Positions 1-60,826 of a stretch of 64,000 nt of DNA are shown in pieces. The notes beneath the pieces were generated by a model. The model worked only from the letters and a program-made list of their open reading frames with translations, was not told the origin of the DNA and made no database searches. The position numbers were made by a program, and so were the translations under genes. Position 1 is the first letter of the stretch. Each line of letters starts with the position of its first letter. The DNA is from Cyanidioschyzon merolae (lineage: Eukaryota), in NCBI GenBank assembly GCA_000091205.1, contig AP006498.2; one strand, written 5' to 3'.

Positions 1-2052
1 AGTGTGTTTCGGTCCATGGGCGTGCTCGCTACGGTTAAGGTGACGGAACGGGACTCGATGGCTTCTGGACACATACTCTGGATATGTGAGATTCAGAGCC
101 TCCGCCAATTCAGTCGGTCTGCATTCCGAGGAAAGAAAGGATATAGAGTATAACGACCCCGTCCATGCCATTTCGCGAAGTGAACGACAAGGCGATGAAG
201 GATCTGGCCTCTATGGACAAGCACGAATCATTCGAGCAACTTTGCTCTGAGCATTTGTGGAGCTCGTACAGGCTTGCTCCATACCTGGCAAAAATGCGGG
301 CAAGTTTAGATGGATTCCAGAGGACCGCTGTGTATCCATCTGCACGGATTTGGTGAAACTCGTGAAACCGGGACCTGAATCGAACGACGAGACTCATTTT
401 CAACCATTCAATGTGGATGAAGAGAAAGGCAACCTATTGGGTGTGGATCCCGTGTCCGAACACATCATGGCCGTTGCCGTACCCGTAAACCAACAGTGCA
501 GGGGCAAAGCCCTGAACGGAAACCAGACGACGATACGTAACTTGTTAAGGGCCCGGTATGATCGCGAGTCGGGCGTGATCGATACCAGGAGACCTACCGA
601 CAAACGGAATGACAGTGCCAAAACCCCGAAGTCGACGCTCTGAGCACTGCATCGTGCAGAGCGGAATCCCCTGTTCGCCTCATTCAGAGTGAATATGAGC
701 GTCGAAAACAGCTCATGCGGACGATGCTTGGTAAGAATACCCGAGAGCACGCTGTGGGTTGCCAACGATATCGGCTATGCGGGGGCGAGATGCATGTGTT
801 CGAGAACTTGATCAATGTGCTTGGAAATGAAATGAACCGCAAGATGCGTCATTCGGTGGCAGCCCAAAGCGCTCAACGTACTGTGGCCCGCCAACGTAGC
901 GCCTGTGCTCCCTCTACGAGCCCGCACAGCGCGTGCAGGATTCGATGCTGCACGATTCGCACCGATGCGTTCGGCACGACATCGGCACTATGGAGGCAAA
1001 TGTGCACACCGTGGTTAATAGACGTGGAGACGGGGACGAAACAGAGCCTGGATGCACGATGTGATGTACGGGAAGCTGACCGCAGGTCAGAGAGCGAAGC
1101 AATCGAAGGTGCGAGGCTTGCGATGCGGTGATTCCACCATCCCGACTACGTTCGAGAACGCGCTGCACCGAGACTTGAACGCCTCGATGACGACCCGGAA
1201 ATAGCATGCGCTTCGCGAGCGTCCAGCAGCTTTGTTTCGAGCGTTGCTTCGAGCGAATCGTTTTGTGCGCTGTATGGGTACTGTGTTGAAACGCACCAAA
1301 CGCACGATGAAGCGATTCGGCGGCCAGGGGAATCGACGTTGGATTCTGGCCTTGAGCACGGTACTGATATGGGACTGTTCGGCTATCCAGCAAGGCTGCC
1401 GCACCGACTTTATCAGTCCCGAAGGATTCAACTCAGCTAAGGATGAACGAAGATAGTGTTCCATGACTCGATATGACGAATTACATCGTAGCCGCCGCAT
1501 GCTAGACTAGGAATGCGTTACGAAAGGCACAATATCTGCAATACTGGACTCGAGGTGGAAAGTTGTAGCGCTGGTGTGCGTCTATCACCGGACAAAGTGC
1601 TGTTCCTGGACGACGGCAGACGCAAGAGCATCTGCTGCCTCTGGCATCGTATTTCGGCGCGGTGGACTCGGGACCGGCTCCCCTGCAGACTCGACCAAGT
1701 TTCTGAACAAGAAATGGCATTTTATGCCTTTCATGAAACAGCGCCCTGCCGTCGGACTGTCATCTGGTTCTTCCTCGAGGCACCTCGAAGAAGCGTTCCC
1801 AGGACTAGAAAAAAGCATGCGCACAACCGAGTTGCGCTCAGATGCCTGTGTACACCAGGGTCGCTGACGAGCTGGACGTCCATGAACTGCACAGACTCGT
1901 CGAGTCATCGCAGCGGAACTCGAGTGGATCGCACCAACGAGGCTCTCACGAGCCACCGCGACGACTCTCTGTGATCAAAAAGGTGCTGCGATCGGTACGG
2001 AAGCAAGCGAGCAACTGCCTCCAGACGCTGCACCCAATCGTTTGCTCGCTGA

Positions 2053-3438
2053 TCAACTGTCTGATGTGTGTGGGAATCCTTCAATGAAACGTCGATAGAT
2101 GGCAAGCTTGTCGACGACCTCTCGCCACAGTGCGACTGGGCCCTCTGCACCCTGCGATACGGCCTGTGCTCGATACTCACCAAGACGCTTCGAGATATTC
2201 CAGGAGAACCGAGACCGTTCACGCCATGCAGTGCTTTTGCCAGCGCTCGTACTGGCGTCCAGGTCTCGTTCGGGTGACTCTGCAACAAAAGGCGGTGGAG
2301 GTACACGCGGACCTAAGATCAGCTCCGCCGACGCTGACGCTACGTACCATACGCCTTGGTGAACTTCTCTCTCGAGTTGGCCAGGTTCCCAGCCACAGTA
2401 ACCGCAGAAGAAACGAACTCGATCGGGGCGAGCAAGCGAACCGCGGCGCGCCAGTTCAGTAAGGCGACCAAGTCCACCGCAATAGACGCCCCCCGGCACA
2501 ATTTCGTACGCAACTTCGTCAGCTGCGCTCCCCGGCAGCTGCTGACGATCGTTCGATGCCAGCAGAGAGCTTTCATCATGGAGCACCAGCAGGGAATCGA
2601 GACCAACCGGGCCACCCAGGTAGAGCGCCTCTCTGCCAAAAACACGCCCCAGGTCGGTGCCCGCCAGAGAGCTAACGAATGATATGCGCTGGGCTGCGCG
2701 GCGGTTCATGATGACCCCCGTTGTACCGTCACTGCCGTGCTCCAGAACGAGAATCACTGTTTGTGCAAAGTACTGCTGTTCATTGAGGAAATGTTTCGGG
2801 GACGCAACCAGAATGTTGCCGGTTTCGATCGCAGTAACTGGATGCACCCAGCGCATGTCGATATCAGCACCAGTCCATTCCATGGAATTCATGCGAGGTG
2901 TCTCCTGCACACGCTGCGGTGAAGCGTGCAGTGCGTCCCCGGTCGAGGAGCTGGGGTCAAGCAGTTCGCCTGCTTTGCTTGCACGGTTCTCGGTCGCAGC
3001 GTTCTCAGGTGACTCAGCCGGTGCACTCCCTTCAGTTTCGACTGTACCGAATGCGTCACCGTATTCGAGCTCTCGCCGCAAGAGTTGCATTCGGAACGCG
3101 CGCCAGTCACGGAGACGCTCGCGAACGTGTGCCTCGTAACCTGCGTGGCGTCGCTGCGACCTCCTCCTCCTCCTCCTCGAGCTGTCAGGAGTGTTCGCGT
3201 CAGCACCAGCGCCGTGGTTATGATCCTGCTCTGGAGGCTCTCCAGTATTTGAGGCACACGCACGCACACGGAACGAGATAGGCACCGTTCTTGGACTAGA
3301 GACGCTCCCAGACGACCCGTAGCCGAGCCCCGAGCCTGACCATTGACAAACGGATAACCGTCGGTGCCTCTGGAGCGACTGCTGCTGGACCCTGGTCCGT
3401 TGTCCCCGACTGGAACAGTTACAAACTATCCAAGTCAT
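2053..3438 (-). CDS. DUF179 (YqgE/AlgH, UPF0301) family protein, probably organelle-targeted; the conserved domain fills the C-terminal ~300 aa
   Basis: The ORF 2053-3480 opens with GTG, and the first in-frame ATG is at 3438. Family motifs are present: GNILVASPKHF...TTGVIMNR and FFCGYCGWEPGQLEREVHQGVWYV, which correspond to the GYAGWxxGQLExE signature of AlgH/YqgE proteins. The N-terminal ~200 aa are Arg/Ser-rich and low-complexity, which could be a transit peptide or an over-extended ORF. Confidence 0.6.
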   Translation of the reverse strand: MTWIVCNCSSRGQRTRVQQQSLQRHRRLSVCQWSGSGLGYGSSGSVSSPRTVPISFRVRACASNTGEPPEQDHNHGAGADANTPDSSRRRRRRSQRRHAGYEAHVRERLRDWRAFRMQLLRRELEYGDAFGTVETEGSAPAESPENAATENRASKAGELLDPSSSTGDALHASPQRVQETPRMNSMEWTGADIDMRWVHPVTAIETGNILVASPKHFLNEQQYFAQTVILVLEHGSDGTTGVIMNRRAAQRISFVSSLAGTDLGRVFGREALYLGGPVGLDSLLVLHDESSLLASNDRQQLPGSAADEVAYEIVPGGVYCGGLGRLTELARRGSLARPDRVRFFCGYCGWEPGQLEREVHQGVWYVASASAELILGPRVPPPPFVAESPERDLDASTSAGKSTAWRERSRFSWNISKRLGEYRAQAVSQGAEGPVALWREVVDKLAIYRRFIEGFPHTSDS

Positions 3439-3674
3439 GTACAGGTAGAGCCGGTTTGCCTGAAAGTTCGCAGCGTGCACGTATCAAAAGCGCTTCCGAA
3501 GAACGGAGGCAAGTGAGGCGGAAAGCGAGCACCATACCGGTGGCAGTTACGCTTCCGCATACGCGAATCGCAACCGCAGAACGGGCAGCAGCAACGGCAG
3601 GGCGTCGATGATCGGGACACGGCCGTTGCACCACCGGCGCTGGTGCGCATTCATCAGCCGTTGCGCCTCTCGCG

Positions 3675-4308
3675 CTGAAAAGACGCGTTTCCACGGATCA
3701 GGGGATCCCAGATTGCCGGATGGACGGGTATTGGCATTCGGGAATGCGTCCAGGATGCTGCAGCCTATCTCCAAGTTCCATTGCTTGTACTTCCTCTCGG
3801 AAATACTGGTTGTTCTGTGGGTTCTATCGTGAACAGAGTGCCTGCGTCGCTGCTCCCGCCGTAGCGTCTATATCGCTGGAGTGGATGCAGCACGGAGATA
3901 GAGCTGTGCTTTGTCGTACCACTGAGGGTATCTGTTTGAGGAACGCTTCACCTGAAACGGTGTCGGGATACATAGTGAGTTTGGGAGCCAGAAATCTGTC
4001 CAGACAAGCCTAGTGCCTGCGACAGCTCGAATTGATATTCTGGGCGTCCACTGCGACCCGGGCGACGCCCAGATGCAGCGGAACTGCCCCGAGTCTCAGA
4101 GTCAACTGCGTTGCGTACGAGTTGCTCAGATCTCGCTAGAGCACCGGGCACGGAGGAGAGCATGGAGCACGAGCCTGGCAGACTCGCGCGGCTTGCAGGA
4201 TCTGCTACCTATACGGTAAACTGTCGACAATATGGAAACATTTTCCCGCTTTTAACGTTTATCTCAGAGGACGAAAGAAATCGTTGTATCGTTGCTAGTT
4301 GGTGAATC
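3675..4308. repeat. Left terminal inverted repeat of c1, about 634 bp; contains one 105-bp subterminal repeat unit and the GGATCCCAGATTG terminal motif
   Basis: The terminus begins GAAAAGACGCGTTTCCACGGATCAGGGGATCCCAGATTG. The same motif is present at the c2 left end (about 28270) and at the solo fragment near 38650. Confidence 0.75.
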
Positions 4309-4487
4309 GTTTTTGCTCTTTGTTTGCATAGCGCGGTCGATACGCGCACCTCCATATCTGGTAGTTACGAGATGCGACGCGCATCTCGCCGTTGAAGGGA
4401 AACGCTATCAGGATAATTAGCAAGGTGTTCGACCCTACAAGTTGTACTTGCGTTAAAGCCATCGCAAAGTGTATTCCCTAAATTCAG

Positions 4488-6340
4488 TTGTGTTCCACTC
4501 TCAAAATAGTATATTCATATGCGTTTTCGCAGCTTACAACAGAAACCTTCGAAGTGCCTTTTATTTCAAAAATAAAAAAGTTATGGAACTGGAATTTGAG
4601 GATCCCGGAGGGCCGGTGTCGCCGACTGCCGAAGAAAAATGAGAAGCAGAGCCGAGCAAACAGGAACTGGAAAAGACGAACAAGCAGAACGGGGAGGCCC
4701 GACGTCCGGAGTTGTACGAAAGACGACAGTACCACGAGATTGCGGAGTAAGCCGGATTTCCTAAACATATCATGGACCGTACAAGGAAAAGTTGCAAGAT
4801 GCCATCAGAACCCGTGTCGAGTCCTTCTCTAAGAGTGTTCGTAACGCTTCTTTAGTGCTGATGCATATGGCGAGGGAGATGTATTACGACGTTACAAACG
4901 TCAAAACAGTCGAGGTTCCGCAGGAATTTTTAGACAATACCTTCATTCATCACCTGAAGGTTGGCGCAGGGGAAGCATCGTGGGGAAATGCGCGAGTACA
5001 TGCCCTCCAGGAAAGTTACACTGAATACCGCTTCAAGGTTACTCAATACAGGGGTGACTCGCGTATCTACGAGTACGGGGCGATGAAGTACCCCACGAAC
5101 CCGAAGAACCATATGTTCATGGACCTCGAACGCTTCATGATACGCTCCGTCTTCGCACTCTGCCCGGGTCTCTTGCGCAAAGCGATATGGAACATTATCA
5201 ATAGCATCACGGACGATCGCCAGCATGAACAAGAGATGAAATTCGGTAACAAGAAGAAATCACACAGTAGAAAGAATGAAGACTCTGTGATCCGTGCGGC
5301 TCTACAGGAGCACTGTGCGGTACTGGGGCTGCCGAATCCAGCAGAAAAGGTATCAGAGTTAAAGAGAGTTAAAGAAAGATTTTATATCTTCTTCCTGCTG
5401 TATTTCGTGTTTCCGAACCGAGAGCTCGAACTCAAGGCGGATATGGAGCAAGGTGTGGAAGAGCATGACGAGTCGTAGAAACGGAAGGCTGCGCTTCTTG
5501 GCAAGCGCTTCAATGTCATTCCATTATGCGACGTCAAATCACATTTTGTGATCATCGACTGCAGAGTCCTTTACAGCATCATGAAGGAGATCCGTCTGGA
5601 GTTCAATCTAAGCAACAGGGGGTTTACGGGTGAAAATTGGGAGACGTGCTGCAAGAAGATCCTCGATTTCAAACGCCTCAAAACGAGCAAGAATAAGGTA
5701 CTCACAGGCATCATCGAAAGCGATGGAGTAGCGAAGTGTGTACACTGTCGGCGGTTGAAGGTTGATCGTACTGGTCCGTCTTCCTTGTCGCCCACGGCGG
5801 AGCATGAACATGAGAAACTGGAGGATCTTGCGACGCAGGGGGTGCATGAGAGCGACTTTGTCGTTGGCGCGGACCCTAAGAATACGAATCTCGTAACCGT
5901 CGCAGCACCCAAGCGTGCGGAGGATGTTAACGACGGCAACTTACGTCATAACGACGTGCGTCTTTTAAAGTTCTCGAAAGCGAGATATTACCTAGAATCG
6001 GGAAAAATGAATGCAAGGAAAATAATTGAGACATGGAATGCAGGAGTGAAAGAGTACCTGGAAGCTGTGATCCAGGTGACGAGCCGCGGTGCGGAGTTTC
6101 AAGCTTTTCGGGAATTCATGAAACCTCAAACTGCTCATCAACAGGAGCGGTGGAAAGCGTATATCAAGCTCTGGTGGGCACATCAGCGAATGAACCTGGA
6201 CGGAGGCAAGCAGCTTGCATTCACTAACTACATCAATCAGTTAAGCACCCTCTAGGAAGACAAGGGTCAAATGCTCGTAAGAGCGTACGGAGCAGGGCGC
6301 TGGATAACCAAAACGGGAGCATACCTGCTCCGTTGACGCA
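4488..6340 (+). pseudogene. TnpB/Fanzor-like RuvC nuclease pseudogene (c1); one frame is continuous from 4792 to 6337 except for two in-frame TAG codons at 5476-5478 and 6253-6255, and upstream ORF 4488-4832 is in another frame
   Basis: The conceptual translation contains RuvC-I FVVGADPKNTNLVTVAAP (Asp codon at 5872-5874). It also contains the downstream block LVRAYGAGRW at about 6277-6303, which aligns to the RuvC-II region of c2 and c3. The sequence then decays: frameshifts garble the Zn-ribbon and RuvC-III region (NRDFNSVVN) around 6340-6640. Confidence 0.6.
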
Positions 6341-6704
6341 GGGAGTACAAGGAGTGAGCATACCGTTCTGTCACAATACCGATAGATAAGTTCCGAACGT
6401 CCTATATACACCATGAACTGGGGGTGTACACGTCATTTGGTCGAGATGCAAAAGTGCCACCGGAGCGCTGGGGATATAGACAAGTACGGAGCGCTGACGG
6501 AAGAGCAAAGGGAAGGGACACGGAGGGCACAAATTTGAGGTCTACTTGCACTGGTGTATATAACCGGCTGCGGCAAGAAACGGATGGATTTTGTGAATCG
6601 TGACTTTAATTCAGTCGTCAATAAAGAGAGCTGTGCGTCGATGGATACAAGACCCGCGGAGCTGGCGCGACCCAACTTTTTGGGGCAACCGCTCAGGGTT
6701 AAAT

Positions 6705-6773
6705 TATATGAGAGAAACTGAAGCCAGGAACAGGCGGCCGGTCGAGAAAGGCTGTTAGACGTCTGCACGTCGG
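6705..6773 (+). ncRNA. Conserved 3' non-coding block of the TnpB/Fanzor-like element (c1 copy); an omega-RNA scaffold role is a speculation by analogy only
   Basis: The block is conserved across all three copies (c1 6705-6773, c2 31578-31653, c3 60764-60826), with an approximate consensus GAGAAACTGA..GGTCGARAAA...GCGTCTGCRCG. Flanking sequence is diverged and the ORFs here are degenerate. This is inference only. Confidence 0.3.
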
Positions 6774-6892
6774 TTTATACACACGCACGGTATCGGCGTG
6801 ATGGACGGAACGGCACGTCTAACAACGGGAGAGCGAAAGCAAGTGATGTGCAGCTATAGCGATGATCCACATGGTTGAAAAGGAACAGAGAC

Positions 6893-7527
6893 GCACGATC
6901 CACTAGCAACGATACAACGATTTCTTTCGTCCTCTAAGATAAACGTTAAAAGCGGGAAAATGTTTCCATATTGTCGACAGTTTACCGTATAGGTGGCAGA
7001 TCTTGCAAGCCGCGCGAGTCTGCCAGGCTCGTGCTCCATGCTCTCCTCCGTGCCCGGTGCTCTAGCGAGATCTGAGCAACTCGTACGCAACGCAGTTGAC
7101 TCTGAGACTCGGGGCAGTTCCGCTGCATCTGGGCGTCGCCCGGGTCGCAGTGGACGCCCAGAATATCAATTCGAGCTGTCGCAGGCACTAGGCTTGTCTG
7201 TACAGCTTTCTGGCTCCCAAACTCACTATGTATCCCGACACCGTTTCAGGTGAAGCGTTCCTCGAACAGACACCCTCAGTGGTACGACAAAGCACAGCTC
7301 TATCTCCGTGCTGCATCCACTCCAGCGATATAGACGCTACGGCGGGAGCAGCGACGCAGGCACTCTGCTCACGATAGAACCCACAGAACAACCAGTATTT
7401 CCGAGAGAAAGTACAAGCAATGGAACTTGGAGATAGGCTGCAGCATCCTGGACGCATTCCCGAATGCCAATACCCGTCCATCCGGCAATCTGGGATCCCC
7501 TGATCCATGGAAACGCGTTTCGGAAAA
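6893..7527. repeat. Right terminal inverted repeat of c1 (reverse complement of 3675-4308)
   Basis: Direct sequence comparison. It ends in the reverse complement of the left terminus (...CAATCTGGGATCCCCTGATCCATGGAAACGCGTTTCGGAAAAGCG), followed by a (GC)8 run at 7549-7566. Confidence 0.75.
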
Positions 7528-7656
7528 GCGAAAATCTATTTGATAGGATTTGCGCGCGCGCGCGCGCATCATATCGCGCGCCATCATTTAACGATGCTCC
7601 GCTCTGAGCGCCTTGCTGCACACGAGCTGTCGTTCCGCACCAAATGCTCTATACCC

Positions 7657-8589
7657 ATGGATAACTGGAGCAGCGATTATGAGTCGGATACAACAGTGGG
7701 CCTACAAAACATAGCCTTCCGAGTACTGAGTGTTCTGGGTATTGGGCTGTGGTTGCACTGCAAGGGACGTCGTCGGCGACGGCTCAGACGTGCTGCAAGC
7801 AACTCGCAAGGCCGCGAACAGGTAGCCGTAAGCTCCCACGACGCTCAATCATTTCCAAAATACGTTTCTGGGCAACAGATGGTTTCGAAAAGTTCCAGTG
7901 TCAAGCGTCAGGAGGGCACGCAGGGCTGCGACAAAGACGATAGCAGAATCGAAGGGGCGACGTCGCCTTGGTCACATGACGCGTGGCAACGGCTGCAGCT
8001 TGCCTGTCAGCGCGCCCAACAGCAGTGCATCTCGCTCGAGGACGAGCTGAAACGCGTTCTTCGCGAGCGAGAGGAACTCCAAGAGGCCCTCTCCATGGCA
8101 CGCGGCGCTCTGCAGCCCTGTGAGCAGAGCACGGGCTGCGCTGCACATGCAGCGCCTCTGCTTGCATCGTTACCGCCGCCGCGCAAGGCAGTGGACCAAA
8201 AGCCCAGCAAACCAGAGGCTCAACGAATGGCGGGTGCTACTGTAAACCTCGACGACGCTACGCAGCCGTGGCTAGAGCATACGACTCCGGTGCCGTCGGA
8301 CCAGTCGAGTCCGTTCCAACAGGACGAGGCGGCGTCCGGAGCCCATTCGCCTGCTGCTCGTTCTGGACCTGTGCTTCCGGACACGCTTGGTGGACTCAGG
8401 CTCGACCCTGTCGAAGTCGCTGCCGCCATGGCGCTCCGCCAGCGTGGATTTGGTGGAGGCCTGCTCAACGAGGCCTCCATCGATGACGTTCGACGACGAC
8501 TGGGTTTTGGTGGTAGTGCTCACTCGTGCAAAAACGCTGCACAAGCACCGACGCATGCTATGGACGCCTTCACGTACTATGGAGATTAA
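7657..8589 (+). CDS. hypothetical protein, Gln/Ala-rich with a predicted coiled coil (LEDELKRVLREREELQEAL)
   Basis: ORF 7507-8589 begins inside the c1 right TIR. The first ATG outside the TIR is at 7657. No recognisable domain is present, and GC-rich antisense ORFs overlap it. Confidence 0.3.
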   Translation: MDNWSSDYESDTTVGLQNIAFRVLSVLGIGLWLHCKGRRRRRLRRAASNSQGREQVAVSSHDAQSFPKYVSGQQMVSKSSSVKRQEGTQGCDKDDSRIEGATSPWSHDAWQRLQLACQRAQQQCISLEDELKRVLREREELQEALSMARGALQPCEQSTGCAAHAAPLLASLPPPRKAVDQKPSKPEAQRMAGATVNLDDATQPWLEHTTPVPSDQSSPFQQDEAASGAHSPAARSGPVLPDTLGGLRLDPVEVAAAMALRQRGFGGGLLNEASIDDVRRRLGFGGSAHSCKNAAQAPTHAMDAFTYYGD

Positions 8590-28194: not shown

Positions 28195-28334
28195 CCGCGC
28201 CATCCGCAGGGCAGCGTACGGAGCGGCAGGCACTGGTGCGATCGCTGTCCAATGATGGGCAGTTTCTCGAAGACGAAACGTTCACGTGGACCATGGATCC
28301 CAGATTGTGGGGTAGATATTCGCGCTGGGGAAAG

Positions 28335-28660
28335 CATCCACGAATCTGTACTCTGCCTTCAAGTTCGGTTCCTTACTCTTGCTCTAGGATATTCTGGTGG
28401 TTTTGTACGTAATATCGAGCGTCGAGTGCCTGCTCTGAGTATCCACGAAACTGTACTCTGCCTTCAAGTTCGGTTACTTACTCTTGCTCTAGGATATTCT
28501 GGTGGTTTTGTACGTAATATCGAGCGTCGAGTGCCTGCTCTGAGCATCCACGAATCTGTACTCTGCCTTCAAGTTCGATTACTTACTCTTGCTCTAGGAT
28601 ATTCTGGTGGTTTCGTACGTAATATCGAGCGTCGAGTGCCTGCTCTGAGCATCCGCCGGA
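28335..28660. repeat. 105-bp tandem repeat array, about 3.1 units, forming the subterminal region of transposon copy c2
   Basis: The unit catccacgaatctgtactctgccttcaagttcggtt(c/a)cttactcttgctctaggatattctggtggttt(t/c)gtacgtaatatcgagcgtcgagtgcctgctctgag starts at 28335, 28440 and 28545. One diverged unit lies in each c1 TIR, one at 38700-38800, and a partial unit at 57790-57840. Confidence 0.85.
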
Positions 28661-29244
28661 GCGGTTATATATCGCTGGTGCAGATGCATCATAGAGACGG
28701 AAATGCTCTGCCGTACCACTGGGGGTGTCGGCTCGAGGTATCTTTAAATCAGCACGGAATCGGAGTACGTAATCATTCGGGGAGTCAGCAAGCTGCGTAG
28801 ACATACCTACTGCCTGAGGCAGCACGGCGCGGTATACGAAGATACTACGGCAAGCAGGGCGACGCCGAGACGCAGCATACCCGCTCCTGGTCCCAGAATG
28901 AACTGCGTTGTGGACGAGTTGCTCAGCTCTTGCTCCAGCGCTAGGCATTGGGCGGGCCTGACGTACGAGCTTGAGAGACATGTCCGGCTCGCGGTGCCTA
29001 CCGCCGAAAAGGTAAACTTTCGAAACTATGCGAACCTTCTCCCCCTTTTTCAAAGTTTATCGTGGAGGGCGAGACAAATCGGTATCTCGTTGCTAGTCTG
29101 TGGATAGTTTCTATACTATTTTCTAGATAGCGCTGTCGATACGCGCACCTCCATATCTGGCAGGCATGATGTACGATGCTCATGTCGCTGTTGGAAGGAA
29201 ACGCGATCTTGATATTTCGCTTGTTGCTCTAACGGACAAGCTGT

Positions 29245-31586
29245 ATGTGCGCTGATGTCGTAGCAAAGTCTAGCTTTTCAGTTCCATTGTGTTTCGACCC
29301 CCAAGTCTGTGTACTCAAATGCTTTTTCGCGGTTTACAGCAGAATTGTTCGAACAGCGTTCTTTTTCAAAAACATAAAAAAGGAAAGTTCTGGAAATCGA
29401 AGTGGAGGATCCTGGAGACGCAGTATCGCCGGCTGCCAGAAAAAACAAAAAACAGTGCCGAGCAAAGACGAACAAGATAAGACCATGAAGCAAAAAGGGG
29501 TGGGGTGGTCCGACGTCAGGATCTGCGCGAACGACGACAGAACGACGAGACGTTCGTGAAAGCGTGTCTTCTTGGCCATACCAAGGATCCGTACAAGCAA
29601 AAGTTGCAAGAGGCCACAAGAAACCGTGTCGAGTCGCAATCGATGAGTGTTATATAGGCGTCGTCAGGAGAAATGCATTTAGTGAAGGACATAAATCGCG
29701 ATGTGACGGATGTCAAAACAGTCTAGGCTCCGGAGGATTTTTCAGCGAAAGCTTTATTCATCATCTGATGGTTTGCACAGGGAAACGTCGAGGAGAAATG
29801 AGCATGTGCACGCTCTCCACGAAAATTACGCCAAATGCCGCTTGAAGGGTGCTCGATACAAGGCTGACTCGCGTATTTACGAACACGGGACGATGAAGCA
29901 CCTCACGAACCTGGAGAATCGCGTGATCGTGAAACCCGAACGCTCCATGATACGCCCCATCTTTGCGCTGTACCCGGGCCCGTCTCGCAAAGGGATACGG
30001 GCCATCGTCGGTGGCATCACGATCGATAGTAGGCATGCGTGGGAGATCGAGTTTGTCGAAAAGAAGACATCACGCAGAAGAAAGAATGAAGGTTCTGTAA
30101 TCCGTGCGGCTACTCGAGAGCATCGTGCGGTCTTGGGGCTAGTCGACCCAGCAGAAAAGGTATCAGGATCGAAAGAAGATGAAGAAAGATGGGATCACCT
30201 CATGCTGCGCTATTTCGTGTTTTTCGGACCGAGAACTCGAACGCAAGGCCGAAAATGAGCAGGGTGTGGATGCAAATGAAGCGTCGGAGACGCGGAAGGC
30301 TGAGCTTCTGGAGAAGCGCTTCAACGTCGTTCTGTTATGCGAGATCAAGTCACATTTTGTGACAGTCGACTCCAGAGCCCTTGACGGCATCATGCAGGAG
30401 ATCAGTTCGGGGTTAGGTGTCAGCACGAACGAGGTTACGGGCGAAAACCGGGAAACTCATTGAAGGAGTATCATCGATTTCAAACTTCTCAAAACGAGCA
30501 AGAAAAAGGAATTTACGGGGATGTTCGAAAGCGATGGGGTATCCATATGTCGACACTATCGGCGCTTGAAGGCAGACCGTCCAGTTCGGCCCTCGGCTTC
30601 GTCCTCGGCGAACCATGAAGAAAACAAGGAGGCGGATCCTGCGACGCAGGAGGTGGAGGAGAACGACTTTATGGTTGGCGCGGCGAAGCATAAAGATGGG
30701 ATGGAGGCGGGTCCTTCGCCGCAGGACATAGAGGATACCGACTTGTCGCTGGCGCAGACCCCGGAAACACAAAGATCATAACTATCGCTGTGTCCATGCG
30801 TGCGGAAGATGGTAACGAGGGTAACTTACGTCGGAGAGACATGCGTCTGTGGAGGTTCTCGAGAGCAAGAGACTAAAGAGAATCCGGTATAATGAATGCG
30901 AGGAAGAACATCGAGATGTGGAATGCAGGAATGAAAGAGCACCTGGAAACTATGAGCCAGGTGACGAGCCGCGGAGCGGACTTGAAATCTTTTCTGAAAT
31001 CCATGGAGGTTCGCGTTGCTCATTGGGAGGCGCTGTGAAAAGAATATACAAAACCCCGGTGGGCTCGTCTGCGTATGAATCTGTACAGTGGAAGCAGCGG
31101 GCATTCGCGAATTTTTTCAATGAGTTGAGCGCCTTGAAGGAGGATGAAAGTCAGAGGCTCGTAGTAGCATACGGAGCAGGACGATGGAAGACCCAACAAG
31201 GGACTACGCCAGCTCCAACGACGAGAATGTATAACGGGTGTGCAAGGCGTTTCGCTACGATACCTGTAGATGGATTCCGAACGTCCTCTACACACCATGA
31301 ACTGGGCTGTACACTTCAGAGGGCAGAGGTGGAAAAGTGCCAGCGGAGCCCTGAGGCTATAAAAAAGTACGGACCGCTGACGGAAGAGCAAATGGAAACG
31401 AGGGCGAAACTTCGAGGATTGCTTGCACTAGTGCGTACAAGCGGCGACAAGAAATGTATGGAGTTTGTTAACCGAGACTTTCACGCCGCTATCAATATAA
31501 GGAGATGCGCGGTGATCGAAAGAAGACCCCCCAGAGTTGACAAGAGAGAATTTTGTGGGGGAGCCTCTCAAAGTGGAATTATATGA
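29245..31586 (+). pseudogene. TnpB/Fanzor-like RuvC nuclease pseudogene (c2), split over at least 4 frames by frameshifts
   Basis: ORF fragments 29710-30258, 30179-30463, 30521-30781 and 30849-31586 are collinear with the c1 frame. The RuvC-I position reads FMVGAAKHKDG, an Asp-to-Ala change (codon 30683-30685). The RuvC-II region reads VVAYGAGRWKTQ. A TS/Zn-ribbon remnant is FRTSSTHHELGC..EKC..KKC. RuvC-III reads NRDFHAAINIRRC (Asp codon 31476-31478). Confidence 0.6.
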
Positions 31587-31645
31587 GAAAAAGTTGGAAC
31601 CAGTAGTAGGTAGCCGGTCCAAAAATACTGGGAGGCGTCTGCGCG

Positions 31646-32185
31646 TCAGCCGGAGACCTCTTGTCTAGGGCGCGGGTCACTCGCCACTACTGAACACCGC
31701 TGGCGGCAACGTTCTTCTTTTGAAAGGCGTTTGCTTTGCTTTGTCAAATAGCATGGATGTGGTCGCTGTACTGTACATACCCATTTTTCTCGGATTTCGG
31801 ACGCGCTGGATGGACGCCTTTTCAAGTTCGATTTCTGTTTTATGCATCCACGATTCCTTGGGTAGCATGTCGGCACCGTTTGCACCGCGAGCGTGCCCGC
31901 AGACCTAAGCGCGCCTTTCCATTCTCTCGTGCACGCGGGCGGGTAGCTAGAGACCAGTTCAGTAATCGTGAAGTGAAAGAAAGCCTCGTCGGAGAACTTT
32001 GGTGTACCGGATGCAAACGACTCGTCTATTGATACGTCAGCGTCAAATTCGCGTTTGTCAGAAGAATAGATGCCTGCAACTGGATTGACGCACATAGAGC
32101 GAGCATACACGCAGAGGAGTTCAAAGACAGTCTCAGCTATGTCTTCCGTGACCCCTTTTGAATGAAGCTCTATGGCAGTTTCCAA
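31646..32185 (-). CDS. hypothetical ORF; a possible gene fragment continuing, with a frameshift, into 32207-32416
   Basis: A 179-aa ORF of non-repetitive composition abutting the c2 3' end. No domain was recognised. Confidence 0.2.
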   Translation of the reverse strand: METAIELHSKGVTEDIAETVFELLCVYARSMCVNPVAGIYSSDKREFDADVSIDESFASGTPKFSDEAFFHFTITELVSSYPPACTREWKGALRSAGTLAVQTVPTCYPRNRGCIKQKSNLKRRPSSASEIREKWVCTVQRPHPCYLTKQSKRLSKEERCRQRCSVVASDPRPRQEVSG

Positions 32186-38624: not shown

Positions 38625-38805
38625 CGCTGAATGATTTTTTTTGATGGACCGGACGTTGACATGCACCATGGATCCCAGATTGTGGGATGGATACCGGTGA
38701 TCGAAAGAGCGTTCATCATGCTGCACTCTATGTTCCAGTTCCATTGGTCGTACGTTTTCTCCGATATACTGGTCGTTTCGTACGTTCTACATTGCACCGT
38801 GTGCA
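38625..38805. repeat. solo terminal fragment of the c1-c3 transposon family (terminus motif plus one 105-bp-type unit)
   Basis: CGGACGTTGACATGCACCATGGATCCCAGATTGTGGGATGGATACCGG matches the c1 and c2 termini. It is followed by a diverged subterminal unit (tggtcgtttcgtacgttctac). Confidence 0.6.
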
Positions 38806-43147: not shown

Positions 43148-43948
43148 GCTGGAATTCGTTACGTCACTGGAATCAAGATGATTCGCGACGCGTTCGAACG
43201 AGCGTTCATAGCATCATCGACACCATGATTCGATTCATGGGCGAATGCCCCGTACGCTTCTCCTGCCGTTTCGTATAGTATGCTCTAATGACGCATTCAT
43301 CAAGTTGTCGACCTTGCTGCTTCGAAGCATCCCGTAGGTTCAGCGATTCGAGCTGCTGGAATGAAGAGGGAAAACTCGATATCGAAATCTTATCGACTTG
43401 TGCATAGATTCCCAGATGCAGTTTTCACGTAGCGTCTTCGTTGAAATAACCGACTCGATCCGAACAACATATCCGCCTCGCTCTGCGGCCATCGTCGAAA
43501 CGGCATGCAGCAGCAGCAGCATGATACCCGTCGCTGTACATGCTATCAGAGGCTCCGGTCTCTTGTGTTCACATGGAAAAGCGTCTTCGACTCGAGTCAT
43601 CCGAGTGATTGCTTCCACAAGCTAGTCCCTCATCGCTTTGCACAAAGTGAGCGAAAACGAATCGTCATGTCTCGAGTTGTGCACCAGCCTGGATATTCCT
43701 TCCGATATTTGTTTCATCCTAGACAGCACCACTCTTCACAGATCCTTTTGTCGCACGCAAAAACCTGTTCTTGCGCTTGCAGCGTCCATCGTATTCGCTG
43801 AAGGGATCACCTCGAAGAAAACCGTGATCCTAGGGTACGCCACCAGGAGCGCAAACAGAGAAGGACGTCGAGAGGAGACTTTCTGTATCCGTCAAGGGGC
43901 GACGGCATATCCCGAGCGATGAGGCGAGCCCGCAAGCGCGCTGCAGCA
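43148..43948 (+). repeat. dispersed repeat family B, copy 1 (~800 bp), about 500 bp upstream of the coatomer gamma gene
   Basis: Collinear with 51742-52495 in the same orientation at about 65-70 percent identity, with conserved blocks such as gctggaattcgt(t/g)acgtc, GCACCAGCCTGGATA..TTTGTTTCATCCT.GA.AGCAC and CCGAGCGATGA(G/A)GCGAGC. Confidence 0.6.
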
Positions 43949-44462
43949 TGGCCTCGGCAGAAGCGCGCGTGCTGGACATGTGGGCAATACCTGGTCACGG
44001 GAAAGTGTCACCAACGCGCAAAGCGCACCGTTGCTGTATACAAGGAAGATAAAAATAGCGAACAGAGCCTAAATCACCAATACCGCATGTGCATCAAGCA
44101 CGTCGAGAATAGCCGGAAGCGGCGCACTCGAACACTGCCAGCAATATCCCTCGATTGCCGACATGAAAGGCGGAGCGAAAAAAAGAGACCTACATCTTTA
44201 AAGTCGGACACAGGAGAGAAGGCAAAACCAATCAGCCGTACAAAAATCCAACACGGGCTGGTGTTGATGGCCATGAAAAAAAAGTCCCAGACTTGAGTAT
44301 CCACCCGTACTCGACAACTTGTCCTATGTTGAATCTGACATGAGCGGTATTGCTCGCGCCGCCTGCGCTGCGAGAAACATTCAACCCGAAACGTCTCAGC
44401 TTCCGCTTCAGCCGTGGCGTCGCTGTTCGCTTGGAGCCGGATTATCGACGAGAAGCCCGAAC

Positions 44463-51741: not shown

Positions 51742-52495
51742 GCTGGAATTCGTGACGTCTCCGATACCAAGATCATCATTCGCGACGCCCTCGAGCAGTG
51801 CCGCTTAAACGAACCGATAGCATCATCCACTTCATACCTGCAAGCCTCCACTCGTCTCCTTTTCGTATATGTAGCACGCTAAAAATCGAGCATTCTTCAA
51901 GTTTTCGATGGATCCGTTCCAAGACACCACTCGTGGACGCAGCGAAGCGCGCGGTCGGATTGACGACGAAACCATCAATCGATGTCGTTCCTGGATGACC
52001 TGTTCACCAAATGATGCCAGGAGTTCACTGGGCTTCTCAAGTCAAATGATCGATTCCATCCAGAAGTCTATCCTTATCTTTTTGACGCCAAAGACGAAAC
52101 GGAATGCCACAGCACCGCCACGGTACCTCCCACGGGAGATGCTCTCGGAGGTTCCCGTCTCTTCGGTTTGGACGGGAAACGGTCTTGGATTCGGAGTTGG
52201 GTTATCGCACCGATGAAAGGGACGGTAGACGGATTGAAATTTCTCGACTCGGGCACCAGCCTGGATACTTTGACCGGTACTTGTTTCATCCTGGATAGCA
52301 CTGTGTTCTGCCAATCATCTATTCGGTACGAAAACGCACGCTTTCGTGTGCAGTGGACAGTGCACTCGCCGACGGGATCGTCCAGAAGAAGTCTGTTATC
52401 GTGGGGTACGGCACCGGTTGCGAAAACGGAGGACGGCATCGAGGTGCGCACGCTTTACCCGCCAGGGGCATGTACTACCGAGCGATGAAGCGAGC
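51742..52495 (+). repeat. dispersed repeat family B, copy 2, lying in a 3-kb gene-free region upstream of the helicase gene
   Basis: See 43148-43948. Confidence 0.6.
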
Positions 52496-54578
52496 ATTCT
52501 AGTGCCACGGGGCGGCGCTCAGAGCACCCGCTCTCGTGGACACACGAGAACACCAGACCACAGTCAAGTGTCACTGCTACCAAACGGCGCATCGAGGCTG
52601 CACTCAATGAAGAAGAAAATGGGAAACAAAACGTAGATCGAAATCTGCACGTGTGAATGAAATGCGTAGAAAAGAGCAACACGCAGCGAAAACGGGACGT
52701 TCATACTGCCATCAACATCCTTCGATCGCTGGCAAGGGTGCTGGTGGAAAAAAATGAGCCCGGCATCGCTCACGCCGGAGACCAGATAGATATAAAAAAG
52801 CAGTCGGAAGCAAAGCCCACAAAGTCTGATATTCCTAACGGTTGAAAGATATCGAAAATTTAGAGTGGACGACCAATTTCGTAGAGCCCGTTCCACTGTA
52901 TGCTGATATGGTGTGTGTGCGTGTGTCTGGGACGTGTCCAGATACTCGATGCACCACTAGAGGCGGCAATCGCCAGCCAGCAACTGCGTAACACGCGCAG
53001 AATGAATGAATCTGCGCAACGGCCAGCAGGGCAATTTGTGATGTAGCCGCCAAAATATCCGGGAAACGGATTGTAACGGTTTGGAGTGCTGTGAGTTCTT
53101 TCGAGGCACCGCGTTGCGTAAAAGAAAAAGTCGAGTTCGGGGATCCGTTTCGTTTGACTCTGAAGTTTCAAGCCGGTGATGTGCCGTGCTGCCTACACCG
53201 GTCACTGAGATGAGCATAGTGCTGGTTGGAGCGACTGCCCTATGGAGTTTCGAGTAGGCAATGGAGCGAAGCCTCAATTCAGCGCCCAGTTCCCACACGC
53301 TGGCCATTTCACTGACCCTATTCGAGTTTCTTGAGACACGGGTCAGAATTCAGAGAGAATTGCCTCTGGAGCACAGGGTGGTGGCAACGGATGGGACTTG
53401 TTGCGGCACAGCGCTCCCGAAACAGATCGCAAAACCAGGTGGTTTTCAAACCGACGCAGCAAGAGTGAGAAGCAAAGGTCTTTTGCAGGTACCGCTCGAC
53501 GCCGACCTGGGATGGATGAAACGTATTTTAATGCTTTCATAGTCACGTTGCATGAGATTGGGGAAGCGTACACCTTTCCCCTGACCGAGCGCTGCCGCTC
53601 ATACGAACGCTTGGAACTTTCGGTACCTGGAGATCTTCCAGGAGAAGCTGTCACTGCAATGGAAGGTTGCGAACATGGTCCCTATAATTGGAGAAGGTAT
53701 CTCGTACTCGAGACATATGTGTTTGCACTTGCGCGCCGCGTAGCAACAAGAAGCCGTGCATGCAAGGCCGGCACGTACACACATGAAGCGGGATCAAGCC
53801 GATGCGTGTCGGTCTCAGAGGTTTGGCGTTGATGCTTCATCGTACGTTGCCTGCCCCGATGCCGCACGAGCCCGCGCACAATTGAGCAACGGATCGTGAG
53901 ATGCTCTTGTGCTGCTCGATGGAGCTTGCTATCATCGATGCGCAGGTTTCCTGGAGTGCCTGGTATTGCCTCGATGCCACCGATCGAATAGCGGCTTGCT
54001 CAAAACGATTGGCTGCGTAGGCTGGTAACCAAATGGAACCCAGGGCGCCGCTGACCCGCGTTCGCCACATGCGATGCTCGCCACACCTGGTCACGAATCT
54101 GCAGTCGAATGGTGGTGTGTATGCGCTCGATGCTGGCTGGGGCGGCAACCGTGCCCCACGCCCAGGATGCATCCACCGCCCGAGACGCATCGGTGGGGAT
54201 CATTGCGGGTGCGCAGCGGCCTACCGCGCGATCGACGATCGGGATCTCGTGCCAGCGAGGCACGGGGCTGAAACATGGACGAAGTAGGACCTTGCGGACA
54301 AGGCGGACACGGGGGCGACACGCGTCGCGCGTGCGGTGTTGACGGCGGCGGTTTCCAGCGATGCATGTCGCGTCACAAACGCGCTCGTCTGACGCTGCCT
54401 TGGGCCACAGAATGCGGACTGCGCTGGGGCGTTTCCAACACGCGCTCTGAGGGCACTGTTGAAGCGTTGGTCGGAGTTTCGGGACGCTGACCAGCTACTG
54501 GTTCCGTATTCTGTGTGACGAGGGTCAAGTGCTCGCTCGTTGTCTCTATTGGCGAGTTAGCACGCACGAAACCTGGCC

Positions 54579-57418: not shown

Positions 57419-57989
57419 GAAGGTCGTTCGTATCCGCACTTGTTTCAAGCGTCTGCCGCCCGGAAGGCGCTAGGTCGGCACTGACGCCGCTCATGGACGG
57501 CGCCCGGCGGAGGCGCACGCGATCCGCGCATCGCTGCGCGTGCTCAGAGAGGGGCGGTTTTGCACCCGCCGCTACGCATCGCTGCGCGACGTCCAGCAGC
57601 GAGCGCCGCGATCTCGCAGGATCGCGGCGTGCGAGCGTTGGCGCCTCGTCTTCGGCGATGCGTTGGAGAAAACGTTTCAGGTGAGCGCGGATCCCAGGCA
57701 GCGGCACGGGTATTGACACGCTGGTACGCGTTCATCAAACTGCATCCGACCTCCGCGTTCGATGACTCATGAATTTTTCGGATGTACTGATCGTTTCATA
57801 TGATCTATCGTGCGCCGAGTGCCTGCCTTGAGCACTCGTCTTGGCGCCTAAACCGCTGGAGCAGATTCATCACGGATGCAGAGCGGGTTTGTCGTACCGC
57901 TGAAGGTGTCGACTCGAGGCGTGGTGCCTCTGACACCGGAATCAGGATTCATTACGATTCTAGGAGCCAGCGTGCTGCGCAGACAGACC

Positions 57990-60826
57990 TACTGCCTGCG
58001 ACAGCGCGAATCGATAGACTAGGATATAACTGGAACATAGGCTACACCCAGACGCAGCATGCTCGCTCCTGGTCATAGGATGAGCTGCGTTTCGGACGAG
58101 TTGTTCAGGTCTCGCTACAGCGGTCGCCAATCTCGAGAGCATAAAGCAGAAGCTTACCAGAGTCGGCCGGCTCGTTGGGCCTTCCTCCAAGAAGATAAAC
58201 TTTCGAAAATAGAGAAAACGTCTCCCCGTTTTACGGTTTAGCATATAGGGGAAAGCAATTGTCATCAAGTCGGTAGTTAACAGGTAGTTTCTGCTTTTTT
58301 TGTATCGCACGGTCGATGAGCGGAACTGCGTATTTAGAAGGCATGAGATACGACGCGCCTCTCGCTGCTGGAAGGAAACGCGATCTTGATACTTCGCTTG
58401 TTGCTCTGACGGACAAGCTGTATGTGCGCTGATGTCGTAGCAAAGTCTAGCTTTTCAGTTCCATTGTGTTTCGACCCCCAAGTCTGTGTACTCAAGTGCT
58501 TTTTCGCGGTTTACCGCAGAATCGTTCGAACAGCGTTCTTTTTCAAAAACATAAAAAAGGAAAGTTCTGGAAATCAAAGTGGAGGATCCTGGGGACGCAG
58601 TATCGCCGGCTGCCAGAAAAACCAAAAAACAGTGCCGAGCAAAGACGAACAAGATAAGACCATGAAGCAAAAAGGGGTGGGGTGGTCCGACGTCAGGATC
58701 TGCGCGAACGACGACACAACGACGAGATGTTCGTGAAAGCGTGTCTTCTTGGCCATATCAAGGATCCGTACAAGCAAAAGTTGCAAGAGTCCACAAGAAA
58801 CCGTGTCGAGTCGCAATCGATGAGTGTTATATAGGCGTCGTCAGGAGAAATGCATTTAGTGAAGGACATAAATCGCGATGTGACGGATATCAAAACAGTC
58901 TAGGCTCCGGAGGATTTTTCAGCGAAAGCTTTATTCGTCACCTGATGGTTTGCACAGGGAAACGTCGAGGAGAAATGAGCATGTGCACGCTCTCCACGAA
59001 AATTACGCCCAATGCCGCTTGAAGGGTGCTCGATACAAGGCTGACTCGCGTATTTACGAACACGGGACGATGAAGCACCTCACGAACCTGGAGAATCGCG
59101 TGATCGTGAAACTCGAACGCTCCATGATACGCTCCATCTTTGCGCTGTACCCGGGCCTGTCTCGCAAAGGGATACGGGCCATCGTCGGTGGCATCACGAT
59201 CGATAGTAGGCATGAGTGGGAGATCGAATTTGTCGAAAAGAAGACATCACGCAGAAGAAAGAATGAAGGTTCTGTAATCCGTGCGGCTATTCAAGAGCAT
59301 CATGCGGTCTTGGGGCTAGTCGACCCAGCAGAAAAGGTATCAGGATCGAAAGAAGATGAAGAAAGATGGGATCACCTCATGCTGCGCTATTTCGTGTTTT
59401 TCGGACCGAGAACTCGAACGCAAGGCCGAAAATGAGCAGGGTGTGGATGCAAATGAAGCGTCGGATACGCGGAAGGCTGAGCTTCTGGAGAAGCGCTTCA
59501 ACGTCGTTCTGTTATGCGAGATCAAGTCACATTTTGTGACAGTCGACTCCAGAGCCCTTGACGGCATCATGCAGGAGATCAGTTCGGGGTTAGGTGTCAG
59601 CACGAACGAGGTTACGGGCGAAAACCGGGAAACTCACTGAAGGAGTATCATCGATTCCAAACTTCTCAAAACGAGCAAGAAAAAGGAATTTACGGGGATG
59701 TTCGAAAGCGATGGGGTATCCATATGTCGACACTATCGGCGCTTGAAGGCAGACCGTCCAGTTCGGCCCTCGGCTTCGTCCTCGGCGAACCATGAAGAAA
59801 ACAAGGAGGCGGATCCTGCGACGCAGGAGGTGGAGGAGAACGACTTTATGGTTGGCGCGGCGAAGCATAAAGATGGGATGGAGGCGGGTCCTTCGCCGCA
59901 GGACATAGAGGATACCGACTTGTCGCTGGCGCAGACCCCGGAAACACAAAGATCATAACCATCGCTGTGTCCACGCGTGCGGAAGATGGTAACGAGGGTA
60001 ACTTATGTCGGAGAGACATGCGTCTGTGGAGGTTCTCGAGAGCAAGAGACTAAAGAGAATCCGGTATAATGAATGCGAGGAAGAACATCGAGATGTGGAA
60101 TGCAGGAATGAAAGAGCACCTGGAAGCTATGAGCCAGGTGACGAGCCGCGGAGCGGACTTGAAATCTTTTCTGAAATCCATGGAGGTTCGCGTTGCTCAT
60201 TGGGAGGCGCTGTGAAAAGAATATACAAAACCCCGGTGGGCTCGTCTGCGTATGAATCTATACAGTGGAAGCAGCGGGCATTCGCGAATTTTTTCAATGA
60301 GTTGAGCGCCTTGAAAGAGGATGAAAGTCAGAGGCTCGTAGTAGCATACGGAGCAGGACGATGGAAGACTCAAAAAGGGACTACGCCAGCTCCAACGACG
60401 AGAATGTATAACGGGTGTGCAAGGAGTTTCGCTACGATACCTGTAGATGGATTCCGAACGTCGTCTACACACCATGAACTGGGCTGTACACTTCAGAGGG
60501 CAGAGGTGGAAAAGTGCCAGCGGAGCCCTGAGGCTATAAAAAAGTACGGACCGCTGACGGAAGAGCAAATGGAAAGGAGGGCGAAACTTCGAGGGCTACT
60601 CGCATGGGTTAGTACAACCAACGGGGCCAAGAAACGCATGGAGTCCGTGAATCGAGCCTCTAATGCCGCCATCAATATCAGACGATGTTCGGTGCTGGAT
60701 ACAGGACCCGCGGGGCTGACGCGATCCAGTTTTGCGGGGCAATCTCTCCGGCTCGAAGTGAACAGGGAGAAACTGATGCCAATAGCAGTGGGCTGGTCGA
60801 AAACGACAGGTATGCGTCTGCGCCTA
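57990..60826 (+). mobile_element. Transposon copy c3: truncated left end, a TnpB/Fanzor-like pseudogene, and the conserved 3' block
   Basis: The left part CTACTGCCTGCGACAGCGCGAATCGATAGACTAGG matches c1 4010-4045. The internal 58195-60590 is about 98 percent identical to c2. The 3' block 60764-60826 is conserved. Confidence 0.65.
58422..60770 (+). pseudogene. TnpB/Fanzor-like RuvC nuclease pseudogene (c3) with frameshifts and stops
   Basis: The same collinear fragments as c2 are present (58950-59435, 59356-59640, 59698-59958, 60005-60943). RuvC-I reads FMVGAAKHKDG. RuvC-III reads VNRASNAAINIRRC, an Asp-to-Ala change at codon 60650-60652. The listed ORF 60005-60943 reads past the conserved block into the flank and is not a real extension. 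Confidence 0.6.

Follow-up and report, generated by a model that had tools for sequence, protein, structure and literature searches.

An apparent inverted-repeat carrier of a Fanzor gene in Cyanidioschyzon merolae is probably a pair of neighboring, previously described repeats with a homogenized center

The structure studied here, c1, occupies positions 3675 to 7527 of a 64,000-nucleotide (nt) stretch of Cyanidioschyzon merolae DNA (GenBank assembly GCA_000091205.1, contig AP006498.2), hereafter referred to as the window, and consists of two long inverted arms around a gene of the TnpB/Fanzor type. A sequence-only reading had interpreted it as a complete foldback-like element bounded by terminal inverted repeats (TIRs) and mobilized in trans as a unit. 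Our analysis argues with good confidence for another arrangement, in which c1 is not one transposon and corresponds to two described repeats lying side by side, one being the Fanzor1 element CMe-1A and the other a 635-bp module in inverted orientation, the center of which was homogenized. Both repeats had already been described for the C. merolae genome, and c1 is not a new kind of mobile element. We propose a model in which an old, inactivated CMe-1A copy (about 3673-6778), deprived of the last ~76 nt of its 3' tail, is followed by an unrelated spacer and then by a separate inverted copy of the 635-bp module (about 6865-7526). The latter would have arrived independently, as the repeat TE-N2_CMe or with a second CMe-1A of which it is the stump. 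The closeness and inverted orientation of the two copies would subsequently have led to homogenization of their central ~615 nt, most likely by gene conversion. Hence, the resemblance of this near-perfect inverted repeat to long TIRs would be due to the homogenization of adjacent inverted module copies.

The inverted repeat itself is real, and the similarity of its arms is far above chance. An inverted-repeat search of the window returned two arms of 639 nt (3683-4321 and 6880-7518) that are 97% complementary and separated by 2,558 nt, and blastn aligned 617 nt (3683-4299 with 7518-6902) at 98.4% identity. The arms initially proposed (3675-4308 and 6893-7527) are within ~10 nt of the measured limits (617 to 639 nt, 97 to 98.4%), and their outer limits coincide with nt 1 of the family consensus, which projects to about 3673 on the left and to about 7526-7530 on the right. 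Weak inverted pairs found outside the arms (I2/I3, 3637-3691 versus 7986-8074, 71 to 77%) were judged to be due to chance.

CMe-1A is a Fanzor1 element of C. merolae described by Bao and Jurka in 2013 (Mob DNA 4:12; PMC3627910), with a 3,169-bp consensus, about 150 copies each ~80% identical to that consensus, and one 734-amino-acid (aa) protein. It was published without TIRs and with target site duplications (TSDs) left undetermined (PMC3627910). The same article describes TE-N2_CMe, an unclassified 635-bp repeat of ~70 copies, also without TIRs, the whole of which is 95% identical to the 5' 635 bp of CMe-1A (PMC3627910). The CMe-1A consensus was taken from Additional file 2 of PMC3627910 and mapped to the window by blastn. 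Positions 3703-6775 of c1 matched consensus nt 28-3093 at 79.7% identity, which is the divergence published for the family, and the right arm (7515 to 6880) matched consensus nt 12-636, inverted, at 79.9%. On the basis of this alignment, c1 is assigned to CMe-1A as a truncated, dead member, and the right arm is assigned as a TE-N2_CMe-like copy via the published equivalence of that repeat to the first 635 bp of CMe-1A. The origin of the window is consistent with this assignment, as three of its host open reading frames (ORFs) match exactly the C. merolae 10D proteins BAM81704.1, BAM81715.1, and BAM81718.1.

The module structure was also derived, independently of the published consensus, from 85 related loci, and the two agree. 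These loci were chosen via the Fanzor gene and come from metagenome contigs of near-identical strains; they represent about 40 distinct (nonredundant) copies. Contigs that cover the orthologue of the region to the right of c1 are 97.6 to 99% identical to the window; the metagenomes thus derive from essentially the same species, and the loci serve as proxies for further copies in the genome. In this comparison, the 5' module (module A) has its left terminus at ...CGATGACAAAACGTTTACATTGACCATGGATCCCAGATTG and its right end just ahead of ATAGCGCGGTCGATACGCGCACC, where the Fanzor unit (module B) begins. The family as a whole starts with CGATGACAAAACG... and ends with ...TTTTGAAAGGCG; c1 has the 5' terminus and lacks the 3' terminus.

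Within c1, the left arm (3673-4329, plus strand) covers consensus nt 1 to ~640 and represents the 5' module of this CMe-1A copy, the equivalent of the published TE-N2_CMe, as seen by blastn to the consensus and in a three-way alignment. It begins at ~3673 with CGCTGAAAAGACG, 10 of the 13 nt matching the family terminus CGATGACAAAACG, and in the three-way alignment it ends just ahead of the start of module B at about 4330. The Fanzor unit follows (4330-6778, plus strand) and, when aligned to other copies and to the consensus, is truncated at consensus ~3093-3096: the homology of c1 with all other copies stops at ...GTCTGCACGTCGGTT, and c1 does not have the final ~76 nt of the conserved 3' tail. 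This missing tail was sought beyond the right arm and was not found there. Like CMe-1A, c1 is colinear with the consensus, with one Fanzor1 ORF and no transposase. Unlike the consensus, it is without this 3' end, its ORF is disrupted, the RuvC-II glutamate is lost, and an inverted 5' module comes after it.

Between the truncated end and the right arm lies an 86-nt spacer unrelated to the element (6779-6864; 104 nt when counted between the blastn matches, from 6775 to 6880). It had no match in any of the fetched loci, and local alignments of the spacer scored at the level of shuffled sequences, whether with the CMe-1A tail, with the beginning of an inverted Fanzor unit, or with the whole consensus. 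The right arm (6865-7526, minus strand) is, by blastn and alignment, a separate inverted copy of the 635-bp 5' module, TE-N2_CMe-like and full-length or nearly so, its outermost ~10 nt not being recognizable. Like TE-N2_CMe, it spans consensus 12 to ~640 and stops, and solo copies of the module are found in loci L004/5 and L019/20/35 and at 38653-38804 of the window (plus strand, ~150 nt, consensus 11-161 by blastn). Unlike TE-N2_CMe, the central 615 nt of the right arm now bear the derived variants of the left arm, and the likeness is one by proxy.

The two-arm structure is not a property of the CMe-1A element. Two further copies lie in the window in the same orientation as c1, c2 (28268-31729, plus strand), which is full-length (consensus 1-3169), and c3 (57662-60821, plus strand), which covers consensus 5-3084 and misses the 3' tail. 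Both are dead, each is ~71% identical to c1 (90% between c2 and c3), and neither has an inverted repeat. Mapping the arm onto all 85 loci gave no c1-like arm pair, and the five loci tested for a self-inverted match near the gene had none. Hence, neither c2, nor c3, nor any of the 85 loci shares the two-arm structure of c1; a lack of other copies with both termini is what the sequence-only reading had itself named as refuting it. The Fanzor unit ends consistently at the equivalent of c1 position 6775, and most copies run on through the conserved tail of ~76 to 105 nt, which c1 and c3 do not have. Module A stands upstream of the Fanzor unit in about a third of the copies. In L019/20/35, a solo inverted module lies 2.8 kb downstream, separated from the unit by host ORFs that resemble ATP synthase beta and Nop10, and in L004/5 another one lies 7.7 kb downstream, past an SMC gene. 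These and the other module copies are 66 to 72% identical to the c1 arms. Moreover, an arm-internal ORF used as a protein query matched the orthologous arm only, with no subfamily of close arm relatives.

The TSDs that the sequence-only reading had suggested seeking outside 3675 and 7527 were not found, no word of at least 7 nt being shared between the outer flanks; the only shared 6-mers in the outer-flank windows were GAAAAG, inside the arm ends, and TTGCGC, ~10 to 30 nt from the boundaries. Likewise, no TSD was found at the right arm's own flanks or across full-length family members. The host flanks of the window had no counterpart among the 85 Fanzor loci, and no empty site was found, as the orthologous contigs of related strains (97.6 to 99% identical) all have the right arm already and most of them break within it. 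The c1 architecture is also present in a strain ~2.4% diverged. Regarding the contigs themselves, seven of the eight metagenome contigs carrying the gene right of c1 stop inside the right arm (contig ends L086-L092, corresponding to window 6988-7487). Such breaks are typical of assembly at a repeat, and one short contig, L094, reads through the arm.

The terminal features attributed to c1 did not hold either. The proposed terminus, GGATCCCAGATTG, sits at consensus 28-40, inside the 5' end of the family. A repeat search revealed no direct repeats inside the c1 arms, each of which has one 105-bp unit; the array of three 105-bp tandem units (consensus ~66-176 of the 5' module) is private to c2 (28333-28654). 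The suggested likeness to hAT, Mutator, or CACTA elements was thus built on subterminal tandem repeats that c1 does not have. hAT, Mutator, and CACTA transposons generate TSDs of 8 bp, 9 to 11 bp, and 3 bp, respectively. Unlike these TIR transposons and unlike Foldback elements, c1 has no TIRs shared by its family, no TSD, and no subterminal tandem repeats.

The near-identity of the arms then calls for an explanation. Blastn and alignment to the consensus delimit the homogenized tract to 3684-4299 in the left arm (plus strand) and 6902-7517 in the right arm (minus strand), with 98.4% identity between them. Between consensus ~9 and ~614, the arms agree at 606 of 616 sites and have 144 departures from the consensus in common. 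Farther inward, over ~27 nt, the identity between them is only roughly 60%, with each arm still following the consensus, and the outermost ~10 nt of the arms also differ from each other. At the inner edge (6876-6890), the right arm keeps the exact consensus 10-mer GTCTCTGTTC, whereas the left arm reads GTTTTTGCTC; thus, the right arm is not a copy of the present left arm. Two old, independent copies, the central part of which was homogenized by gene conversion, represent the simplest and most likely reading. The right arms of related strains show left-arm states at 2 to 4 of the 10 arm-specific sites, a mosaic that fits concerted evolution and is suggestive of it.

Intrachromosomal gene conversion is known to keep long inverted repeats alike, as in plastid inverted repeats and sex-chromosome palindromes. 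Like such palindromes, c1 shows a near-identity limited to a central tract, diverged edges, and arm-specific sites that are seemingly mosaic among strains. Unlike them, its arms are two copies of dispersed repeats lying by chance 2.6 kb apart, with no function implied. Several points weigh against our interpretation. The strain mosaic is drawn from contigs of metagenomes, in which a repeat with 98% identity can give rise to chimeric assemblies, and the inner-edge argument rests on ~27 nt. In addition, the right arm is tied to TE-N2_CMe by proxy and not to the TE-N2_CMe consensus itself, and may just as well be what is left of a second CMe-1A. Finally, the ~40 distinct copies inspected are a part of roughly 220 CMe-1A and TE-N2 copies and were chosen via the Fanzor gene, so that pairs of solo TE-N2 copies are unsampled.

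Other histories could be envisaged. In a recent local inverted duplication, the right arm would have been copied from the left one (e.g., by template switching or fold-back repair) and the two would have diverged by 1.6% since. The 98.4% identity and the 144 shared derived sites, compared to 66 to 72% for every other module copy, are what such an event would leave. We consider it unlikely, because the right arm retains the consensus sequence (GTCTCTGTTC...) at its inner edge and the left arm does not, and because both ends of the right arm fall within ~10 to 25 nt of the module boundaries, which is unexpected for an arbitrary segmental duplication. The mosaic of arm-specific sites among strains also argues against it, with the assembly caveat mentioned above. 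In a slightly less probable alternative, a second complete CMe-1A would have inserted tail to tail and its Fanzor unit would later have been deleted, leaving the right arm as a 5' stump. The available data do not separate TE-N2_CMe from the 5' module of CMe-1A, and truncation and rearrangement are frequent among family copies. Nevertheless, the sequence adjoining the inner end of the right arm is not homologous to the beginning of the Fanzor unit, and the arm stops where the 635-bp module stops.

As for a genuine TIR-bounded, foldback-like nonautonomous element (arm, Fanzor, arm) mobilized in trans as a unit, we regard it as highly improbable. In its favor, the outer limits of the long inverted repeat fall on the module 5' terminus, and the architecture is stable across strains up to ~2.4% diverged. 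However, this structure was seen in none of c2, c3, and the 85 loci, the family was published without TIRs (PMC3627910), and no TSD was found. Furthermore, the conserved 3' terminus of the Fanzor unit is absent, with unrelated sequence in its place before the arm, so that the right arm stands as a separate entity beyond a truncated end and a spacer, and the outermost ~10 nt of the arms mismatch each other. Altogether, these observations argue for two neighboring repeats with a homogenized center rather than for a single element.

The interior gene had been recognized as TnpB/Fanzor-like, and both profile and fold comparisons now place it among Fanzor1 proteins. Pfam found no domain in the two long interior ORFs of c1 and, on ORF pieces and intact relatives, no family, with one sub-threshold match to the Cas12f/TnpB TNB domain in one relative. 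Relatives numbered 55, of up to 752 aa, in a large protein collection and 354 in a gene-based scan of metagenome contigs. Among Protein Data Bank (PDB) sequences, a profile of 16 close relatives had no match. A 46-sequence profile, made from diverse relatives out of 1,415 matches in a search of 1.84 billion proteins, had three, all Fanzor1: PpFz of Parasitella parasitica (9cf0, 6.5e-21), SpuFz of Spizellomyces punctatus (8gkh, 8.8e-13), and GtFz of Guillardia theta (9cer, 4e-6). The alignments pass through the GxDPG, DEFRT, and NRDxNAAxN motifs. An AlphaFold2 model of the intact relative P0001 (predicted local distance difference test score [pLDDT], 80.7; predicted template modeling score [pTM], 0.78) was compared to the PDB with Foldseek, and the top seven matches were all Fanzor1 (E values from 6e-15 to 1e-12; target-normalized template modeling [TM] scores from 0.50 to 0.72). 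The CMe-1A family would thus encode a Fanzor1 RNA-guided nuclease, a function assigned by analogy with the solved homologues SpuFz, PpFz, and GtFz, with which the family shares 12 to 15% sequence identity, c1 itself being inactive. That c1 contains only a Fanzor-type gene was right insofar as its interior is colinear with a consensus encoding a single protein and no other domain was found by Pfam in its two long ORFs; the gene, however, is a pseudogene. Neither was a transposase found, and c1 cannot move by itself, as initially suggested.

In the family alignment, the catalytic triad Asp-Glu-Asp (D484, E656, and D725 of P0001) is invariant or nearly so, and it is complete in intact copies. In c1, the aspartates are kept in RuvC-I (GADPKNTN, 5866-5889) and RuvC-III (NRDFNSVVN, 6596-6622), and the glutamate of RuvC-II (IDKFRTS, 6382-6402) is replaced by lysine (6388-6390). 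Compared to the consensus coding sequence, the c1 gene (ATG at 4583; 4583-6778, plus strand) has six frameshifting indels and six in-frame stops, and together with the motif states this identifies it, at the level of sequence, as a Fanzor1 pseudogene and not a functional member. The genes of c2 and c3 have eight to nine frameshifts, the same five in-frame stops (consensus codons 88, 111, 357, 470, and 524), a start codon changed to CTG, and glycine instead of the RuvC-II glutamate. Just upstream of RuvC-I, the Fanzor ORF contains a 75-nt (25-aa) unit whose copy number varies between copies (L001 11146-11445, with three units, in the locus of P0001; c2 30668-30742; c3 59845-59919; c1 ~5795-5872). 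The extra unit of c2 and c3 is 74 nt long and shifts the frame, and the P0001 model is disordered at residues 380 to 470, the region of the 25-aa unit.

The comparison of loci also informs on the 3' end of the family and on its spread. The 3' tail comprises ~76 to 105 conserved nt after ...GGCGTCTGCAC (e.g., c2 31651-31729 and L007 5607-5690). It contains local hairpins (GGAGACGtttCGTCT; GGCG...CGCC), the terminal one existing in two alternative versions, CGTTCGActtTCGAACG or GCGTTTTTCttttGAAAGGCG. RNAalifold gave a weak consensus for the tail, with one compensatory pair, and Rfam had no match in the window. This conserved tail is a candidate for the 3' part of an omega RNA. In most copies, consensus nt 1 is immediately preceded by a T-run (...TTTTTT/CGATGAC) and the last nt is immediately followed by TTTG (...GGCG/TTTG), e.g., L052 1215/4532, L028 5023/8275, and window 28268/31729, with no clean TSD. 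These flanks could reflect a target preference, a motif resembling a transposon-adjacent motif (TAM), or a few extra bases of the element.

The flanks of c2 and c3 are unrelated. Since both copies share their stops, the CTG start, and the Glu-to-Gly change, they were copied from an already dead template. Such propagation of dead copies implies mobilization in trans or a route independent of the protein that the element encodes; the CMe-1A family has no associated transposase. Where the 635-bp module is missing, its place upstream of the Fanzor unit is taken, with an unchanged junction (window ~4330 in c1), by one of at least three further, unrelated multicopy sequences, i.e., type A2 (L025, L044, L048, L054, L056, and L071; with ~200 bp of the 635-bp module, inverted), type A3 (L079, L041, L084, L012, and L039), and type A4 (L022, L014, L059, L064, and L004; overlapping reverse-transcriptase-domain ORFs in L004). 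Hence, with the TE-N2_CMe module included, at least four unrelated 5' modules are joined to the Fanzor unit at a single junction. The MCi-2 Fanzor1 elements of Mucor circinelloides similarly have a constant 3' region with the Fanzor gene and 5' regions that differ by subfamily, and their copies have TSDs of 11 to 12 bp (PMC3627910). The Fanzor unit of the C. merolae-like metagenomes resembles MCi-2 in its varied 5' modules at one junction and differs from it in that no TSD was found at c1 or at full-length family members.

Some further features of the window were recorded. Just beyond the right arm lies a (CG)n run (7550-7567), and a 360-aa ORF (7507-8589, plus strand) has its ATG, at 7507, within the right arm. 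Gene callers give its orthologues in related strains as 360 or 310 aa, and its true start is probably farther downstream. A second dispersed repeat family (64 to 68% identity), intergenic, without a long ORF, and unrelated to CMe-1A, has minus-strand matches at 43547-44121 and 52352-52828 of the window. It is also found in L039, L048, L041, and L081, and in L004 (12750-13485) it adjoins the solo inverted 635-bp module.

Our study is mainly a correction: what appeared to be a TIR-bounded Fanzor carrier corresponds to chance neighbors, two published repeats whose shared part was homogenized. The identity of two arms alone, here 98% compared to ~70% between family copies, is no evidence of recent transposition or of functional TIRs. 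The study also adds to the 2013 description of CMe-1A the 3' terminus and its conserved tail, the T-run/TTTG flanks, the alternative 5' modules, and the propagation of dead copies, details that leave the kind of element unchanged. The joining of the Fanzor unit to several unrelated 5' modules at one junction could also be read, with quite a low probability, as the sign of a unit that spreads without a transposase, its nuclease cutting under RNA guidance and homology then assisting its copying into other dispersed repeats; the c1 palindrome would be a by-product of such exchange between repeats. If true, C. merolae, with its small, finished, and transformable genome, would constitute a natural system for understanding what Fanzor nucleases do for the elements that carry them.

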